Assembly (NCBI RefSeq): GCF_988242995.1
Contig: NZ_OZ547043.1
Reading direction: 5' to 3' (one strand)
DNA: 64,000 nucleotides
Shown one piece after another: positions 6,417 to 55,653 of this stretch; position 1 is the stretch's first letter; each line of letters opens with the position of its first letter. A program made the translations under genes and the position numbers. Below the pieces are notes generated by a model, which was not told the origin of the DNA, did no database searches, and saw only the letters and a list, made by a program, of their open reading frames with translations.

Positions 6417-7064
6417 TTAAATCGCCATTGATGATAACAAATTGATTTGTGTCTGTTTCGCCATATTATCGCGGTAATCAGCAACGCGGCTTGGCCAGTT
6501 GATTCCGGCTACCAGCGTCAGATTACGCAGTAGCGGAAATAGCTGAATATCATCTTCCGAAAGTTCGCCATTCACGGCGTTCGGTTTGACGATCAGTTTG
6601 TCCAGCGCACGTAAATCATCGCTGATATTCTTAATCAGACCGTCAGAGTGGGCCAGCAGGTCGGCAAAATTACCCGCGCTGGCCTCTTTCTTGTCGACGA
6701 AATATTTGCGCGCGGCAGGAGTAGAAAACTCATCAAATGCCGATTTGGCAAAACGCGGCAACAGCAGTTTGTTGGCGTAGCCATTGACCTTGCGCAGCCA
6801 CTCTTCAATGGCAGGGGAACGTTTGCCGGTCAGTAACGGTTTGCCGTCGAGTTTATCGACATAGTGAACGATGTCCATGCTTTCTGGCATATAGCGGCTG
6901 TCATCTTTTTGCAGAATGGGAACCTGTTTTTGACCGACCATCCGGGTGGGTGTTTCTGCGTCGTCGTTGAGCAGAACATGTAATTCGACGGGGATATTTT
7001 TCAGGCCGAAAATCATGCGGGCTTTGAGGCAGTAAGGGCAGTGATCGTAAATGTATAGCTTCAC
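6417..7064 (-). CDS. grxB: glutaredoxin 2
   Basis: Track ORF 215 aa, CPYC active site near the N-terminus; GTG start codon read on the minus strand. Confidence 0.93.
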   Translation of the reverse strand: MKLYIYDHCPYCLKARMIFGLKNIPVELHVLLNDDAETPTRMVGQKQVPILQKDDSRYMPESMDIVHYVDKLDGKPLLTGKRSPAIEEWLRKVNGYANKLLLPRFAKSAFDEFSTPAARKYFVDKKEASAGNFADLLAHSDGLIKNISDDLRALDKLIVKPNAVNGELSEDDIQLFPLLRNLTLVAGINWPSRVADYRDNMAKQTQINLLSSMAI

Positions 7065-8571: not shown

Positions 8572-9814
<1,243 letters not shown>

Positions 9815-9815
9815 A

Positions 9816-10739
9816 GTGAAAAAATTACGTATCGGCGTAGTGGGATTAGGCGGCATTGCGCAAAAAGCGTGGTTACCGGTGCTGGCGGCAGCGTCTGACT
9901 GGATGTTACAAGGAGCCTGGTCGCCTACGCGCGCGAAAGCCCTGCCAATTTGTGAAAGCTGGCGCATTCCTTATGCCGATTCGTTATCCAGCCTTGCCGC
10001 CAGTTGCGATGCGGTTTTTGTGCATTCCAGCACCGCCAGCCACTTTGACGTGGTCAGTACGTTACTCAATGCGGGGGTACATGTCTGTGTCGATAAACCG
10101 CTGGCAGAAAATCTGCGCGATGCTGAACGGCTGGTGGAACTTGCGGCGCGGAAAAAACTGACGTTGATGGTCGGTTTTAACCGTCGTTTCGCACCACTCT
10201 ACGGTGAGTTAAAAACGCAACTCGCCACCGCAGCCTCGCTAAGAATGGATAAACATCGTAGCAATAGCGTCGGGCCACACGATCTTTATTTCACGTTGCT
10301 GGATGATTATCTGCATGTGGTGGATACCGCGCTGTGGTTGTCGGGCGGCAAAGCCTCTCTGGATGGCGGTACGCTACTGACTAACGACGCTGGCGAAATG
10401 CTGTTTGCCGAGCACCATTTTTCGGCCGGTCCTTTGCAGATCACCACCTGTATGCATCGCCGTGCCGGAAGCCAGCGTGAAACCGTGCAGGCCGTGACTG
10501 ACGGTGCGCTCATCGACATTACGGATATGCGCGAATGGCGTGAGGAGCGCGGGCAGGGCGTAGTGCATAAACCGATTCCTGGTTGGCAGAGTACGCTTGA
10601 GCAACGTGGATTTGTCGGCTGTGCGCGGCACTTCATTGAATGTGTGCAAAATCAGACAGTTCCGCAAACCGCCGGCGAACAGGCAGTGCTGGCGCAACGT
10701 ATCGTTGACAAGATCTGGCGCGATGCGATGAGTGAATAA
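9816..10739 (+). CDS. yceM: Gfo/Idh/MocA-family oxidoreductase YceM (MviM)
   Basis: Track ORF 9783..10739; start placed at GTG 9816 (VKKLRIGVVGLGGIAQKAWLPVL, Rossmann motif) giving the recalled 307 aa; starts 2 nt after the yceH stop. Confidence 0.85.
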   Translation: MKKLRIGVVGLGGIAQKAWLPVLAAASDWMLQGAWSPTRAKALPICESWRIPYADSLSSLAASCDAVFVHSSTASHFDVVSTLLNAGVHVCVDKPLAENLRDAERLVELAARKKLTLMVGFNRRFAPLYGELKTQLATAASLRMDKHRSNSVGPHDLYFTLLDDYLHVVDTALWLSGGKASLDGGTLLTNDAGEMLFAEHHFSAGPLQITTCMHRRAGSQRETVQAVTDGALIDITDMREWREERGQGVVHKPIPGWQSTLEQRGFVGCARHFIECVQNQTVPQTAGEQAVLAQRIVDKIWRDAMSE

Positions 10740-17564: not shown

Positions 17565-17606
17565 TTAATCGATTGATGACATTGCAATAAAAGCGCGCGG
17601 ACTGTT

Positions 17607-17641
17607 CCCTCGCCCCTTTGGGGAGAGGTTAGGGTGAGGGG
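17607..17641. repeat. GC-rich imperfect palindromic intergenic repeat (boxC-like) between flgF and flgG
   Basis: CCCTCGCCCC-ttt-GGGGAGAGG inverted repeat followed by TTAGGGTGAGGGG; resembles a recalled E. coli intergenic repeat class, exact family not verified. Confidence 0.3.
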
Positions 17642-17682
17642 AAATGCGCACCGCCGCGTGCTTCTGCTCTGCTTGTCACTAA

Positions 17683-19234: not shown

Positions 19235-19245
19235 GTGAGGCTGTG

Positions 19246-20343
19246 GTGATTAAATTTCTCTCTGCATTAATTCTTTTACTGGTTACCACGGCGGCTCAGG
19301 CTGAGCGTATTCGCGATCTCACCAGTGTTCAGGGGGTAAGGCAAAACTCACTGATTGGCTATGGCCTGGTGGTGGGGCTGGATGGAACTGGTGACCAGAC
19401 AACCCAGACGCCGTTTACCACACAAACGCTTAATAACATGCTCTCACAGCTGGGAATTACCGTTCCGACGGGCACCAATATGCAGCTAAAAAACGTCGCT
19501 GCGGTAATGGTGACGGCGTCACTTCCGCCGTTTGGACGCCAGGGGCAAACCATCGATGTGGTGGTATCTTCCATGGGTAATGCCAAAAGCTTGCGTGGCG
19601 GTACGTTGTTGATGACACCGCTTAAGGGCGTTGACAGTCAGGTGTATGCGCTGGCGCAGGGCAATATTCTGGTTGGCGGCGCAGGAGCCTCCGCTGGCGG
19701 TAGCAGTGTTCAGGTGAACCAACTGAACGGTGGACGGATCACCAATGGTGCGGTTATTGAACGTGAATTGCCCAGCCAGTTTGGCGTCGGGAATACCCTT
19801 AATTTGCAACTTAACGACGAAGATTTCAGCATGGCGCAGCAAATCGCTGACACCATCAACCGCGTGCGTGGATATGGCAGCGCCACCGCGTTAGATGCGC
19901 GGACTATTCAGGTGCGCGTACCAAGTGGCAACAGTTCCCAGGTCCGTTTCCTTGCCGATATCCAGAATATGCAGGTTAATGTTACCCCGCAGGACGCTAA
20001 AGTAGTGATTAACTCGCGCACCGGTTCGGTGGTGATGAATCGCGAAGTGACCCTCGACAGCTGCGCGGTAGCGCAGGGAAATCTTTCAGTAACAGTTAAT
20101 CGCCAGGCCAATGTCAGCCAGCCAGATACACCGTTTGGTGGTGGGCAGACTGTGGTTACTCCACAAACGCAGATCGATTTACGCCAGAGCGGCGGTTCGC
20201 TGCAAAGCGTACGTTCCAGCGCCAGCCTCAATAACGTGGTGCGTGCGCTCAATGCGCTGGGCGCTACGCCGATGGATCTGATGTCCATACTGCAATCAAT
20301 GCAAAGTGCGGGATGTCTGCGGGCAAAACTGGAAATCATCTGA
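19246..20343 (+). CDS. flgI: flagellar P-ring protein FlgI
   Basis: Track ORF 19243..20343; second GTG (19246) gives 365 aa starting [13 protein letters not shown] as recalled; start ambiguous by one codon. Confidence 0.92.
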
Positions 20344-44855: not shown

Positions 44856-45215
44856 GTGGCAGAAGAAACTATATTCAGCAAAATTATTCGTCGTGAGATC
44901 CCCTCCGATATCGTTTACCAGGATGATCTGGTAACGGCGTTTCGCGATATTTCGCCGCAAGCGCCAACGCATATTCTGATCATTCCAAATATCCTCATTC
45001 CAACTGTGAACGACGTGTCTGCTGAGCATGAGCAGGCGCTGGGACGCATGATCACCGTAGCGGCAAAAATTGCTGAGCAAGAAGGTATTGCCGAAGATGG
45101 CTATCGTCTGATCATGAACACCAACCGCCACGGCGGACAAGAGGTTTACCACATCCATATGCACTTGTTGGGTGGCCGTCCGCTGGGACCAATGCTGGCG
45201 CATAAAGGTCTGTAA
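44856..45215 (+). CDS. hinT: HIT-family purine nucleoside phosphoramidase HinT
   Basis: Track ORF 44838..45215 (TTG); GTG 44856 gives 119 aa starting [16 protein letters not shown] with the HIT motif HIHMHLL. Confidence 0.9.

Positions 45216-46230: not shown

Positions 46231-46250
<20 letters not shown>
45609..46250 (+). CDS. lpoB: PBP1b activator outer-membrane lipoprotein LpoB
   Basis: Track ORF 45606..46250 (TTG); ATG 45609 gives 213 aa with lipobox LAGC and a Pro-rich linker. Confidence 0.9.
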
Positions 46251-48091
<1,841 letters not shown>

Positions 48092-48919: not shown

Positions 48920-49055
48920 TTTTGGTATGACCAATGCACCATTCATGTTATTCTCATTAGCGAAGAACATTTTCATTGCTGTAACCTGTTGTTAATTAAG
49001 AGCTATGTTAATAACCATTAATTAACAATTGGTTAATAAATTTAAGGGGGTCACG

Positions 49056-50360
49056 TTGACTACGCCATTGAAAAAAATTGTGATTGTCGGCGGCGGTGCT
49101 GGTGGGCTGGAAATGGCAACACAGCTGGGGCATAAGCTGGGACGCAAGAAAAAAGCCAAAATTACGCTGGTCGATCGTAACCACAGCCACCTGTGGAAAC
49201 CGCTGCTGCACGAAGTAGCGACTGGCTCGCTTGATGAAGGCGTCGATGCGTTGAGCTATCTGGCCCATGCGCGCAATCATGGTTTCCAGTTCCAGCTGGG
49301 TTCCGTCATTGATATTGATCGTGAAGCGAAAACAATCACTATTGCAGAACTGCGCGACGAGAAAGGTGAACTGCTGGTTCCGGAACGTAAAATCGCCTAT
49401 GACACTCTGGTAATGGCGCTGGGTAGCACCTCTAACGATTTCAATACACCAGGTGTCAAAGAGAACTGCATTTTCCTCGATAACCCGCACCAGGCGCGTC
49501 GCTTCCACCAGGAGATGCTGAATCTGTTCCTGAAATACTCCGCCAACCTGGGCGCGAATGGCAAAGTGAACATTGCGATTGTCGGTGGCGGCGCGACGGG
49601 TGTAGAACTCTCCGCTGAATTGCACAACGCGGTCAAGCAACTGCACAGCTACGGCTATAAAGGTCTGACCAACGAAGCCCTGAACGTAACGCTGGTAGAA
49701 GCGGGTGAACGTATTTTGCCTGCATTACCGCCACGTATCTCTGCTGCGGCCCATAATGAGTTAACGAAACTTGGCGTTCGCGTGCTGACGCAAACCATGG
49801 TCACCAGTGCTGATGAAGGCGGCCTGCATACTAAAGATGGCGAATATATTGAGGCTGATCTGATGGTGTGGGCAGCCGGGATCAAAGCGCCAGACTTCCT
49901 GAAAGATATCGGTGGTCTTGAAACCAACCGTATCAACCAGCTGGTGGTGGAACCGACGCTGCAAACCACTCGCGATCCAGACATTTACGCTATTGGCGAT
50001 TGCGCGTCATGCCCGCGTCCGGAAGGGGGCTTTGTTCCGCCGCGCGCTCAGGCTGCACACCAGATGGCAACTTGCGCAATGAACAACATTCTGGCGCAGA
50101 TGAATGGTAAGCCGCTGAAAAATTATCAGTATAAAGATCACGGTTCTCTGGTATCGCTGTCGAACTTCTCCACCGTCGGTAGCCTGATGGGTAACCTGAC
50201 GCGCGGCTCAATGATGATTGAAGGACGAATTGCGCGCTTTGTATACATCTCGCTGTACAGAATGCATCAGATTGCGCTGCATGGTTACTTTAAAACCGGA
50301 TTAATGATGCTGGTGGGGAGTATTAACCGCGTTATCCGTCCACGTTTGAAGTTGCATTAA
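49056..50360 (+). CDS. ndh: NADH:quinone oxidoreductase II (NDH-2)
   Basis: Track ORF 49029..50360; TTG 49056 preceded by SD AAGGGGG gives 434 aa starting [17 protein letters not shown] (FAD Rossmann motif). Confidence 0.93.
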
Positions 50361-50423
50361 TCGGCTTGTACTGGCGGATGGGGCATAAACGCTTCATCCG
50401 CCCTGGACAAATGGTACGAGCGG

Positions 50424-50444
50424 TAGGCCTGATAAGACGCGTTA
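50424..50444. repeat. left half of a REP palindromic unit split by the IS insertion
   Basis: GCCTGATAAGACGCGTTA at 50427-50444 pairs with AGCGTCGCATCAGGC at 51880-51894 to reconstitute a canonical REP. Confidence 0.75.
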
Positions 50445-50452
50445 TGAACTGC

Positions 50453-51355
<903 letters not shown>

Positions 51356-52021
51356 AGGAGATGCTCCTGCATGGCTTTCAGATATGCATTTTCTGCGCGA
51401 AGATAACGCAGCTCATTCTTCATCTCTTCCGGCGTCATGTTTGCCTCGTTTTCATGGGTATCATCAGAACGGGTCATGCTTTTCTCCTTCCTGCGCCTGA
51501 TAAAGGCCTCATTACCAGATTTGCGGTAGCCTTTTATCCAGTTTTTAACCGTGTTGTGGCTGGGAATGTTAAACCGGGCAGCTACCCGGGGTAGAGACTC
51601 AGAATGCCCGAGAGCATAAAGAACCACGCAAAGTTTATCTTCAGGAGAATAGCTACGCTTGTGTCTGCAATCCAGTGCCCGAGGACCGTGAAGAAGAAAA
51701 AGATTAATCCAGTGTGAGAGGCTGGTGTGAGAAAGTTGAAAGAGTTTTGCCGTAGAAATGATGCCTGCATGACCAGCCAGGTAATGATTTACAGCGGCAA
51801 GTTTTACTTCAAATGAATGTTTCATAAACTGCACCTTCAGATGTCAGATTATGTCCAACATTTGGGGTGCAGTTCATTAAGCGTCGCATCAGGCATTCCT
51901 TCAGACTCCTCCGAATCCCTAAGTATTTCCAGCCATTCCCGCGCTTTTCATCTTCTGTCTGATAGCTGCTTTTCTCCTTCGCTTGCATGATTGGCATAAC
52001 AGCAAAGAAGGAGGTGTTCCC

Positions 52022-52561
52022 GTGAATAAATCAATGTTGGCGGGTATCGGGATTGGTGTCGCAGCTGCGTTGGGCGTAGCGGCAGTGGCCAGTCTGAACG
52101 TGTTTGAACGTGGCCCGCAATACGCTCAGGTTGTTTCTGCAACCCCAATCAAGGAAACGGTTAAAACACCGCGTCAGGAGTGTCGCAACGTCACAGTGAC
52201 CCATCGTCGACCGGTGCAGGATGAAAATCGCATTACCGGGTCGGTGCTCGGCGCTGTTGCTGGCGGCGTGATAGGGCATCAGTTTGGCGGTGGTCGCGGT
52301 AAAGATGTCGCCACTGTTGTGGGGGCGCTGGGAGGTGGCTATGCCGGTAACCAGATCCAGGGCTCTCTCCAGGAAAGCGATACTTACACGACTACGCAAC
52401 AGCGTTGTAAAACGGTGTATGACAAGTCAGAAAAAATGCTCGGTTATGATGTGACCTATAAGATTGGCGATCAGCAGGGCAAAATCCGCATGGACCGCGA
52501 TCCGGGTACGCAGATCCCGCTAGATAGCAACGGGCAACTGATTTTGAATAACAAAGTATAA
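52022..52561 (+). CDS. ycfJ: Gly-rich membrane/lipoprotein-like protein YcfJ
   Basis: Track ORF 51983..52561; GTG 52022 preceded by SD AAGGAGG gives 179 aa (MNKSMLAGIGIGVAAALG). Confidence 0.88.
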   Translation: MNKSMLAGIGIGVAAALGVAAVASLNVFERGPQYAQVVSATPIKETVKTPRQECRNVTVTHRRPVQDENRITGSVLGAVAGGVIGHQFGGGRGKDVATVVGALGGGYAGNQIQGSLQESDTYTTTQQRCKTVYDKSEKMLGYDVTYKIGDQQGKIRMDRDPGTQIPLDSNGQLILNNKV

Positions 52562-52583
52562 CAAGGCTGTACTCTGCAATTTA

Positions 52584-52617
52584 GCCCCTCATTCGCTCAG
52601 GCTGAGGGGCTTTTTTT
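52584..52617. terminator. bidirectional intrinsic terminator between convergent ycfJ and comR
   Basis: GCCCCTCA-n11-TGAGGGGC hairpin followed by T7 on the plus strand. Confidence 0.65.
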
Positions 52618-52622
52618 GCGCC

Positions 52623-53255
52623 TTATTTCACCAGTTCGGGCCATAAACGCAAAGTCGTTCGGACAATCTGCATCAGTTTTTCCAGCGATGCACCTTCGCG
52701 TGCGCTGATCGACATCCCCTGAATAATACAATTAAGGAATTCAGCCAGATGCGTCACGTCACAGTGGGTCGGGATTTCACCGCGCGCTTGTCGTTGACAT
52801 AAAAACTGCTGCAAAGTGCGCTCTTGCATCGCATGGCGTGATTTCAGCGTATTGCCGATATCTCCGGAATCTGGGGAGAGGGTGGTGCAGTTGTTGATCA
52901 TGAAGCAGCCTGCCGGGGTGTCTTTGCTGGTAAAGCAGTTGGCGATGGCAGCAAAATAGTCAGCCAGCGCAGACTCCACGCTTTTCTCTTCACAAAACAG
53001 CTGTGCTTCATGCTTAGCGGCAAAACGATCGATATAGCGGTCGAGAACGGCGCGAAATAACCCCTCTTTGTTGGTAAATTCCGCGTATAGCGTGGGCGCT
53101 TTGGCTCCGGTCGCTTCGACGAGGTCCGCAAGAGAAGTCGCTTCATAACCGTGTTGCCAGAACAATTTCATGGCCTTATCAAGCGCTGCATCCCTGTCGA
53201 ACACTTTTGGGCGGCCACGGCTTTTTTTTACACATTGTGTTGAGTCAGTTGCCAT
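52623..53255 (-). CDS. comR: TetR-family copper-responsive repressor ComR (YcfQ)
   Basis: Track ORF 52623..53333 trimmed to ATG (plus 53253-53255, MATDSTQCVKKSRGRPKVFDRD) giving 210 aa with an N-terminal TetR HTH. Confidence 0.88.
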   Translation of the reverse strand: MATDSTQCVKKSRGRPKVFDRDAALDKAMKLFWQHGYEATSLADLVEATGAKAPTLYAEFTNKEGLFRAVLDRYIDRFAAKHEAQLFCEEKSVESALADYFAAIANCFTSKDTPAGCFMINNCTTLSPDSGDIGNTLKSRHAMQERTLQQFLCQRQARGEIPTHCDVTHLAEFLNCIIQGMSISAREGASLEKLMQIVRTTLRLWPELVK

Positions 53256-53410
53256 GATGCCGTTGTACCTGGTGACTGTGAATGAAAGGTTATTATAAAA
53301 ATAATCACCTCCGTTCACCAGTCCAGATCCCATAAAAATAATTGCTTTCTATTTAACTGAAATTTAAAGATTTTTAAATTAATTAATGATTGTTATAAAA
53401 AATATCTTGT

Positions 53411-53428
53411 ATGTGATCCAGATCACAT
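53411..53428. promoter_or_regulatory. perfect 8-2-8 palindrome ATGTGATC-CA-GATCACAT upstream of bhsA (candidate TetR-type/ComR operator)
   Basis: Inverted repeat read directly in the AT-rich comR-bhsA gap, about 70 nt upstream of the bhsA start. Confidence 0.4.
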
Positions 53429-53495
53429 CTATCATTTAGTTATCGATCGTTAAGTAATTGCTTGCGACGTCATTCATCTGCATAAGGCCACTATT

Positions 53496-53753
53496 ATGAA
53501 AAACGTAAAAACCCTCATCGCTGCGGCGATTTTAAGCTCCATGTCATTTGCCAGCTTTGCTGCTGTCGAAGTTCAGTCAACGCCAGAAGGCCAACAAAAA
53601 GTCGGTACTATCAGTGCTAACGCGGGGACAAATCTGGGATCGCTGGAAGAGCAGCTGGCGCAAAAAGCGGATGAGATGGGCGCAAAATCATTCCGTATTA
53701 CTTCTGTAACCGGTCCAAATACCCTCCATGGAACAGCAGTAATTTATAAATAA
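53496..53753 (+). CDS. bhsA: multiple stress resistance protein BhsA (YcfR, DUF1471)
   Basis: Track ORF 85 aa with signal peptide; matches recalled BhsA. Confidence 0.93.
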   Translation: MKNVKTLIAAAILSSMSFASFAAVEVQSTPEGQQKVGTISANAGTNLGSLEEQLAQKADEMGAKSFRITSVTGPNTLHGTAVIYK

Positions 53754-53779
53754 GCATTAACCCTCATTAATGCCTGCTA

Positions 53780-54500
53780 CTGCTGATTTTTTCCCCGCGA
53801 CATGCCGTGTCGCGGGGATTTTTGTGCACAGAAAACCCCCAGCTAGGCTGGGGGTTCCGGAAAGCTTTCAGCTTTGAGCCAGTTATTAAAACCCCTTTTG
53901 ATTTGTTAAAACACTTTGCGGTCTGGCAACTGCAAGTGTCAAACAAGAAATCAAAAGGGGGTCCCAATGGGGAACGAAAAGAGCTTAGCGCACACCCGAT
54001 GGAACTGTAAATATCACATAGTTTTTGCGCCAAAATACCGAAGACAGGTGTTCTACAGAGAGAAGCGTAGAGCAATAGGCAGTATTTTGAGAAAGCTGTG
54101 TGAGTGGAAAAGCGTACGGATTCTGGAAGCTGAATGCTGTGCAGATTATATCCATATGCTTGTGGAGATCCCGCCCAAAATGAGCGTATCCGGCTTTATG
54201 GGATATCTGAAAGGGAAAAGCAGTCTGATGCTTTACGAGCAGTTTGGTGATTTGAAATTCAAATACAGGAACAGGGAGTTCTGGTGCAGAGGGTACTACG
54301 TCGATACAGTGGGTAAGAACACGGCGAAGATACAGGATTACATAAAGCACCAGCTTGAAGAGGATAAAATGGGAGAGCAGTTATCGATTCCCTATCCGGG
54401 CAGCCCGTTTACGGGCCGTAAGTAACGAAGTTGGATGCAAATGTCAGATCGTGTGCGCCTGTTAGGGCGCGGCTGGTAAGAGAGCCTTATAGGCGCATTT
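53780..54500 (+). mobile_element. IS200-type insertion sequence (IS200/IS605 family); ends approximate (about +/-25 bp)
   Basis: Contains an IS200 TnpA ORF, a 5' hairpin with flanking T-runs (53793-53817) and an RBS-sequestering stem-loop (53893-53959); the bhsA-ldtC gap is about 790 bp against a much shorter gap recalled for K-12. Confidence 0.8.
53967..54425 (+). CDS. tnpA: IS200 transposase TnpA (HUH/Y1 single-strand transposase)
   Basis: Track ORF 53916..54425 trimmed to ATG 53967: MGNEKSLAHTRWNCKYHIVFAPKYRR... 152 aa, near-identical to recalled IS200 TnpA. Confidence 0.92.
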   Translation: MGNEKSLAHTRWNCKYHIVFAPKYRRQVFYREKRRAIGSILRKLCEWKSVRILEAECCADYIHMLVEIPPKMSVSGFMGYLKGKSSLMLYEQFGDLKFKYRNREFWCRGYYVDTVGKNTAKIQDYIKHQLEEDKMGEQLSIPYPGSPFTGRK

Positions 54501-54506
54501 GAAAAA

Positions 54507-54540
54507 CCTCCGGCTATGCCGGAGGATATTTATTTTTATC
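54507..54540. terminator. bidirectional hairpin terminator next to the ldtC 3' end (probably the native bhsA/ldtC terminator)
   Basis: CCTCCGGC-tat-GCCGGAGG hairpin 54507-54525 with an A-run before and ATATTTATTTTTA after. Confidence 0.55.
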
Positions 54541-54546
54541 CAGGAT

Positions 54547-55509
54547 TTACAGAGTTTGTGGGCTCACTTGATGACGGCGGACATCCACCGGCATCCCGGA
54601 ACGGACATCCATCACATGTTGCATCACTTCAGCGTCAGTTTGTGCTGCATCTTTAAATGATTGCATTGCGCTATTCAGCGTAATTGGCAGCAGCTGCGGA
54701 TCGTCATCAATCTTCTCTGACAGCGGCTGATGTACTTCAACCAGACGCGCACCGTTTGGTTCGGCAGAGACTTTTATCGGAGTGTTGATGATATTCACTT
54801 TGGTGCCTGGGGTGACCTGGCTAAAGAGTGTTTTGATATCGTCATCACGCAGACGAATACAGCCAGAACTTACCCGCATGCCAATGCCGAAATCGGCGTT
54901 CGTACCGTGAAGCAAATAAACACCGCCATAGGCCGCCAGACGAATCGCATGATGGCCCATTGGGTTATCCGGTCCAGCCGGAACTACCGCAGGCAACTCA
55001 ATTCCCTGTGCTTTATAACGGGCGCGGATGTTTGCCGTTGGCGTCCAGGTTGGGTTTGCACGTTTGTCTGAAACGGTGGTCACCATTGTCGGTGTCAGCG
55101 TGTCACCACCCAACTGACCAATGCCGATGGGATACACGGTTACCGAATTTTTACCCGGCGGGTAGTAATAGAGACGCAGCTCCGCAATGTTGATCACAAT
55201 GCCTTCGCGCGGCGCGTCTGGAAGTAGGGTTTGCAACGGGATCGTTAACACGCTACCCGCGCGCGGTACGTAAGGATCAACACCGGGGTTAGCCTGTAAC
55301 AGAGCGAGAAAGCCGACGTTATATTTTTTGGCGATGGCTTCCAGAGAACCACCGTCATTTTCCACCACATGAAATTTGTTTTCGCCAACCAGACGACTGC
55401 CCGCTGGCGGCAGCGGCCAGGTGTTGGCTTTTGCCGGTAGCGCCAGCGCCACGGCAGCGGCGAACGTAAAAAACGTTAGCCAGCGAGAAAAACGCGTTTT
55501 GATCATCAC
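54547..55509 (-). CDS. ldtC: L,D-transpeptidase LdtC (YcfS)
   Basis: Track ORF 54547..55512 (TTG); GTG at plus 55507-55509 gives 320 aa starting MMIKTRFSRW; start ambiguous among TTG/GTG/ATG within 3 codons. Confidence 0.9.
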   Translation of the reverse strand: MMIKTRFSRWLTFFTFAAAVALALPAKANTWPLPPAGSRLVGENKFHVVENDGGSLEAIAKKYNVGFLALLQANPGVDPYVPRAGSVLTIPLQTLLPDAPREGIVINIAELRLYYYPPGKNSVTVYPIGIGQLGGDTLTPTMVTTVSDKRANPTWTPTANIRARYKAQGIELPAVVPAGPDNPMGHHAIRLAAYGGVYLLHGTNADFGIGMRVSSGCIRLRDDDIKTLFSQVTPGTKVNIINTPIKVSAEPNGARLVEVHQPLSEKIDDDPQLLPITLNSAMQSFKDAAQTDAEVMQHVMDVRSGMPVDVRRHQVSPQTL

Positions 55510-55653
55510 CAAAAATCCATAATAAATATAAGGTTATTGTAATAAACAGATAAGCCTGAATTATGGATGGTGACAGTGTCGGATAGTGCAGGGAAGTGCA
55601 AAGAATTTGTAAATGTTGCAGATGGGGGCGCAGAAACGCCCCCAATCTAACCA

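Follow-up and report, generated by a model that had tools for sequence, protein, structure and literature searches.

GTG and TTG start codons in a 64-kb Escherichia coli chromosome segment agree with the curated K-12 annotation

Initiator tRNA reads GUG and UUG as well, with a mismatch at the first codon position. Among the described cases of near-cognate initiation, the GTG of lacI (PMC11445065) and the TTG of cdsA (PMC11448367) are starts read by the initiator tRNA that yield lower output than ATG, and in reporter constructs GTG and TTG cut expression 8- to 12-fold (PMC11445065). Both genes use their start codon as an expression tuner that is conserved in some lineages, a role that we can only infer for the genes analyzed here. 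The closest precedent is ndh itself: the report by Young, Rogers, Campbell, Jaworowski and Shaw (1981, Eur J Biochem 116:165, as listed in the references of PMC3237581) names its 'UUG initiation codon' in the title, and, as far as that title goes, the gene and its codon are identical to those described below. For the gene set as a whole, the system most similar to the one analyzed here is the curated annotation of E. coli K-12 MG1655 (NC_000913.3).

The DNA under study (hereafter the window) is a stretch of 64 kb that alignment to K-12 identifies as an E. coli chromosome segment, with the 3′ part of trhO at one end and the 5′ part of nagK at the other. The window pairs with positions 1,116,994-1,178,866 of K-12 MG1655 in four blocks of 97.4-98.5% identity (overall ~98.4%), and its ndh region is 99.8% identical to that of some swine isolates. 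The source strain is not K-12; all K-12 genes of the region are nonetheless found in it, and 64 K-12 CDS starts map inside the window. Start codons were read at the positions where these curated starts project onto the window. Non-ATG codons occur at the starts of twelve genes (Table 1). The window strain is ~1.6% diverged from K-12 and carries two insertion sequences that are absent there in K-12, but the twelve genes share their protein lengths and the codons at homologous start positions with K-12, with zero start codons differing between the two strains. In strain K_EC180, a closer strain with an NCBI annotation, the start codons of the eight genes covered are likewise identical. The initial annotation of this DNA, made from the sequence alone, had proposed TTG starts for ndh and plsX and GTG starts for grxB, yceM, flgI, fabF, hinT, thiK, nagZ, ycfJ and ldtC. 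The two TTG starts are borne out at the K-12 positions and with the K-12 ORF lengths, the nine GTG codons match curated K-12, and alignment to curated K-12, which had been suggested as a check, thus returns agreement for all 11 named start codons; the list stood in full, with yceQ (GTG) as the one gene overlooked.

Table 1 Start codons and associated features of the window, with coordinates counted from its first position
Feature	Coordinates	Strand	Remarks
grxB start codon GTG	7062..7064	-	215 aa; sole candidate
yceM start codon GTG	9816..9818	+	307 aa; 1 nt past yceH stop
flgI start codon GTG	19246..19248	+	365 aa; second GTG directly 5′ at 19243
yceQ start codon GTG	27473..27475	+	106 aa; poorly supported gene; K-12 annotation
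plsX start codon TTG	30592..30594	+	356 aa; single ATG/GTG/TTG from upstream in-frame stop to PlsX domain
fabF start codon GTG	34910..34912	+	413 aa; sole candidate 5′ of conserved N-terminus
hinT start codon GTG	44856..44858	+	119 aa
thiK start codon GTG	46231..46233	+	274 aa; within last 20 nt of lpoB
nagZ start codon GTG	47066..47068	+	341 aa
Upstream in-frame TTG opening ndh longest ORF	49029..49031	+	not a start codon
ndh Shine-Dalgarno TAAGGGGGT	49043..49051	+	4 nt 5′ of TTG; predicted pairing -11.6 kcal/mol
ndh start codon TTG	49056..49058	+	K-12 start position; 434 aa
Insertion between ndh and ycfJ	50405-51880		~1.48 kb; absent from K-12
ycfJ start codon GTG	52022..52024	+	179 aa
Insertion between bhsA and ldtC	53823-54533		~710 bp; IS200C-type transposase; absent from K-12
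ldtC start region: TTG (55512), annotated GTG (55509), ATG (55506)	55504..55512	-	consecutive codons

Candidate starts were compared through their ribosome-binding site (RBS), scored as the pairing energy with the 3′ end of 16S rRNA for each in-frame ATG, GTG and TTG located between the preceding stop and +40 codons. In ten of the twelve genes the annotated codon has the strongest or the best-spaced RBS, the exceptions being plsX, where the site is weak, and ldtC, where the candidates cannot be told apart by this score. N-termini were further aligned to NCBIfam family models, which begin at residue 2 in GrxB, 3-4 in YceM, 4 in FabF, 1 in NagZ, 6-7 in Ndh and 6 in PlsX (model position 3). A non-ATG start is forced in eight genes (grxB, plsX, fabF, flgI, ndh, yceM, hinT and thiK), whose frames contain no ATG from the preceding stop up to the conserved N-terminus. 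Downstream ATGs exist nearby in nagZ (+4 codons), ycfJ (+4) and ldtC (+1). For comparison across species, a DNA-pattern scan for an Ndh motif, with one genome per species, yielded 120 loci; these ndh loci of other species stop short of grxB, yceM, flgI and plsX. At the annotated position, a start codon is found in all loci for ndh (87/87), ycfJ (72/72), hinT (35/35) and fabF (27/27) and in 50 of 56 for nagZ; at the ldtC position, two species have CTA or ACG instead. Among published start-site data, the TRAINSPOTTER N-terminomics supplement contains hinT alone of this gene set, the supplement of a tetracycline-inhibited ribosome profiling study, which lists changed starts only, does not include ndh, plsX, fabF, grxB or ldtC, and a search of an mBio 2024 supplement for start-site data on the gene set returned zero matches.

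The GTG of grxB is preceded by an RBS of -9.3 kcal/mol, family model TIGR02182 aligns from residue 2, and the CPYC active-site motif comes before the next ATG, which is at +16 codons. In yceM, the predicted pairing of the GTG (-7.3 kcal/mol) is stronger than that of the TTG found upstream at 9783 (-2.6). The candidates for flgI are two adjacent GTG codons and nothing else, so that a GTG start is forced in both cases; the spacing of a GAGG motif favours the downstream codon over the one at 19243. yceQ has a moderate RBS. Elsewhere in the flagellar genes, the flgF-flgG intergenic region (17581-17673) spans ~92 nt in the window vs ~126 nt in K-12 and accounts for one of the alignment breaks.

The annotated TTG of ndh has the best RBS among the in-frame candidates, all three of which are TTG codons. 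The analysis of other species was based on the 87 loci with a start codon and an RBS at the E. coli position, in which the codon is TTG in 78, GTG in six and ATG in three, and in which the G run of the Shine-Dalgarno sequence is kept at 80-98% per position. Four-fold degenerate sites near the ndh start show major-allele frequencies of 0.32-0.48, close to saturation. The ndh TTG stands out in this respect, since it has been kept in ~90% of the loci though GTG and ATG work elsewhere and the neighbouring four-fold sites are near saturation. This cross-species view is what the present analysis adds to the UUG codon announced in the title of Young et al. (1981). In Dickeya and Lonsdalea the TTG sits one codon further upstream. 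A possible concealment of the ndh start by RNA structure received no support from folding, the predicted fold being no stabler than that of shuffled sequence (z-score 0.03).

The longest ORF of ndh opens nine codons upstream of its annotated start, and the same kind of overshoot is seen in yceM (+11 codons), flgI (+1), hinT (+6), ycfJ (+13) and ldtC (+1). The region 49029-49058, to which the initial annotation had attached its observation, is exact in this regard, running from the TTG that opens the longest ndh ORF to the annotated TTG. Its remark that several longest ORFs begin at an upstream in-frame TTG or GTG applies to these six of the eleven genes it named, and its warning against assigning starts by the longest ORF is well founded: this ORF is too long at the 5′ end in 23 of the 64 genes, opening with TTG or GTG in 17 of the 23. 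The presence of upstream in-frame TTG or GTG codons in yceM, flgI, hinT, ndh, ycfJ and ldtC admits the alternative that the longer ORFs are translated into N-terminally extended proteins, and minor upstream starts are known in some E. coli genes (17 cases; PMC13245402). We find this alternative hardly credible for the window. The upstream codons have a predicted pairing energy of 0 in ndh and ycfJ and weak values in hinT (-1.5 kcal/mol) and yceM (-2.6 kcal/mol), and in 32 of 45 species the upstream ndh TTG does not share the reading frame of the gene.

That TTG, which has no predicted RBS, lies within a conserved AT-rich non-coding block. It is separated from the ndh start by 24, 25, 26 or 27 nt depending on the species and is in frame in 13 of 45; given this varying distance, the block resembles non-coding DNA. 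As an observation in its own right, the AT-rich block (TTAATTAACAATTGGTTAATA, 49000-49042) lies just 5′ of the ndh RBS and is kept from Escherichia to Pantoea and Serratia; a regulatory role for this DNA is probable.

An experimental N-terminus, the other type of check that had been proposed for this DNA, is available for hinT. Its N-terminal peptide has been observed at the annotated GTG, with additional support from Ribo-RET (PMC13245402 supplement, TRAINSPOTTER), and hence not at the start of the longer ORF, which again argues against extended proteins and for the annotated starts. The same position is occupied by ATG in 35 of 35 other species and by GTG in the window strain, K-12 and K_EC180. 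With ATG in all other species, the hinT GTG looks like a recent ATG-to-GTG change, one so far found only in E. coli.

Downstream of hinT, the thiK GTG is kept in Enterobacteriaceae, where the overlapping coding end of lpoB also constrains the codon; its one rival candidate, a TTG at +13, lacks an RBS. For nagZ and ycfJ the nearby ATG codons bring in a further alternative, namely that some annotated non-ATG starts are errors and that the real start is an ATG at +1 codons in ldtC, +4 in nagZ, +4 in ycfJ or +10 in plsX. We consider it quite possible, if on balance doubtful, that at least some of these starts are misplaced in this manner. In nagZ and ycfJ, the strong RBS is spaced 5 nt from the GTG and 17 nt from the ATG, and the annotated position holds a start codon in nearly all nagZ loci and in every ycfJ locus, both of which speak against the ATG. 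The nagZ RBS (AAGGAG) has a predicted energy of -9.3 kcal/mol, and among the 56 species the position reads GTG in 43, ATG in five and TTG in two. The ycfJ RBS (AAGGAGGTG) reaches -12.6 kcal/mol, with GTG in 65 and ATG in seven of the 72 species.

By eye, the ycfJ RBS region (52005-52024) is visibly weaker in six of the seven species that start with ATG, its forms there being GGGAGA, AGAGGGA, AGAAGGA and CAGGAGA vs AGGAGG. In this small set of seven species, start codon and RBS strength could be compensating for each other.

The one doubtful assignment is that of ldtC. The ATG directly adjoins the annotated GTG, and the TTG, GTG and ATG candidates share a single weak GGAT motif as their RBS. 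Most aligned species retain an ATG as codon 2, and codon 1 varies among GTG, ATG, CTA and ACG; with CTA or ACG as codon 1, Enterobacter sp. ENT03 and Escherichia sp. ESNIH1 can begin translation at the ATG alone. Tetracycline-inhibited ribosome profiling, moreover, could not resolve starts one codon apart (PMC4909307). Because the conserved codon is the ATG and not codon 1, the annotated GTG appears doubtful and the true start may be the ATG, giving a protein of 319 aa. The LdtC N-terminus looks like a signal peptide.

The two insertions of the window lie close to these genes. The insertion between ndh and ycfJ contains two minus-strand ORFs (51304-51834 and 50477-51199). IS150 was entertained as its identity and rejected in favour of IS1397 (IS3 family), the RefSeq designation of the matching element. 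Positions 50000-55000 of the window are covered at 80% or more in one of 5426 complete E. coli genomes, which has IS1397 at the site. The second insertion occurs at its site in some genomes, and both insertions together in none of the 5426 complete E. coli genomes. The start of its IS200C-type transposase is likely the ATG at 53967 (MGNEKSLAHTRW...) and not the TTG at 53916 that opens the longest ORF.

In plsX the RBS motif is weak (-5.8 kcal/mol), and here the conjecture of a downstream ATG start meets two objections: the ATG at +10 would cut residues aligned to the first positions of TIGR00182, and the TTG recurs at its position in unrelated lineages. The latter was seen when metagenomes were scanned for the motif DVMGGDFGP; of the 119 loci returned, 112 have a single candidate start. 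Among these 112, TTG is the commonest codon (69 loci), followed by GTG (22) and ATG (21), and the TTG recurs in many unrelated lineages. After dereplication into 42 clusters, TTG is used in 22 of 29 clusters with rpmF directly upstream vs one of 13 without it, an association with a Fisher P of ~9e-5 when phylogeny is ignored. Many lineages have 2-3 nt separating the rpmF stop from the plsX TTG. This arrangement suggests that, on the mRNA shared by the two genes, the TTG may limit PlsX synthesis to a level far under that of ribosomal protein L32. A search of the literature collection used here found zero papers joining plsX, rpmF and start codons, which is no proof of novelty.

The GTG of fabF is preceded by a GGAGG RBS (-9.3 kcal/mol), and in 27 loci of other lineages its position holds GTG in 17, including Proteus, ATG in six and TTG in four. 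A CCCTCC motif adjoins the RBS (34886-34903), and both are kept as far as Proteus; the motif could pair with the RBS. An RNA structure hiding the fabF start was considered and dropped, the predicted fold being no stabler than shuffled sequence (z -0.77).

Taken together, non-ATG codons start 12 of the 64 genes in the window (19%). A base rate of ~17% non-ATG starts, which the 1997 annotation reportedly gave, was set aside, since current annotation gives ~11%. The K-12 annotation comprises 3747 ATG, 386 GTG and 71 TTG starts, or 10.9% non-ATG (PMC5714196, Table 1), with 81 as an alternative count of annotated UUG starts (PMC4909307). The density in the window is therefore ~1.7 times the genome rate, with a nominal binomial probability of 0.046 for at least 12 of 65 genes and of 0.083 for the 11 of 64 genes originally listed; taken alone, GTG gives P = 0.07 and TTG P = 0.30. 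In a simulation of 4000 genomes with 4204 genes each, 12 or more non-ATG starts fell within some stretch of 65 genes in every genome. As chance alone is expected to produce such dense stretches in some part of the genome, 'cluster' is a description and not a signal, and the initial annotation's use of the word does not hold as a claim of more than chance. Non-ATG genes come to lie near one another because about one in nine E. coli genes has such a start.

The densest local run extends from hinT to ycfJ, where five of eight consecutive genes have a non-ATG start (four of five from thiK to ycfJ). Weak start codons could gather there beyond chance expectation if the hinT-ycfL-lpoB-thiK-nagZ-ycfP operon, ndh and ycfJ shared selection for low translation, amounting to an enrichment at the level of the region or operon. 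The run of five in eight has P = 0.02 inside one window, which would be compatible with a weak operon-level effect, and thiK and nagZ follow their upstream genes in tight coupling. Such an enrichment is nevertheless distinctly unlikely in our estimation. A run as dense is expected somewhere in a genome of 4204 genes (P = 0.73), and the test was chosen after the region had drawn attention. Nor are ndh and ycfJ contiguous with that block: intergenic stretches of ~400 and ~200 nt, respectively, intervene. The codons also differ in age, the hinT GTG having been found in E. coli alone and the ndh TTG and ycfJ GTG extending across Enterobacterales. With start codons that differ in age and context, no region-level mechanism is needed.

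We therefore hold, with strong confidence, that these are ordinary genes with near-cognate GUG and UUG starts, a property of each gene in turn and not of the region. At each start, the initiator tRNA would read the GUG or UUG codon, positioned by the gene's own Shine-Dalgarno sequence or, inside operons, by its closeness to the stop codon at which the preceding gene ends. Four of the twelve genes (yceM, flgI, thiK and nagZ) start at most 11 nt past the stop of the upstream gene or overlap it, and re-initiation at these coupled starts may tolerate a weak codon. By analogy with published reporter data, less protein is probably made from these weaker start codons.

The observation made on this DNA is thus confirmed and its interpretation supported, and the finding is already known: it restates the curated K-12 annotation, with the ndh UUG on record since 1981. 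For annotation, a longest-ORF rule would misplace the starts of 23 of the 64 genes in the window, and 11 genuine proteins would be cut short if GTG and TTG were disregarded, two lessons long established for E. coli. Three points go slightly beyond the textbook: the possible ATG start of ldtC, the association of the plsX TTG with an upstream rpmF, and the conservation of the weak starts of ndh, ycfJ, nagZ, fabF and plsX far outside E. coli. From their recurrence across species, the ndh TTG, plsX TTG, ycfJ GTG, nagZ GTG and fabF GTG are old, conserved starts. Tentatively, and with confidence a shade short of even, we propose that the identity of the start codon is for some genes a selected and conserved setting of expression, with ndh and plsX as the cases that stand out.
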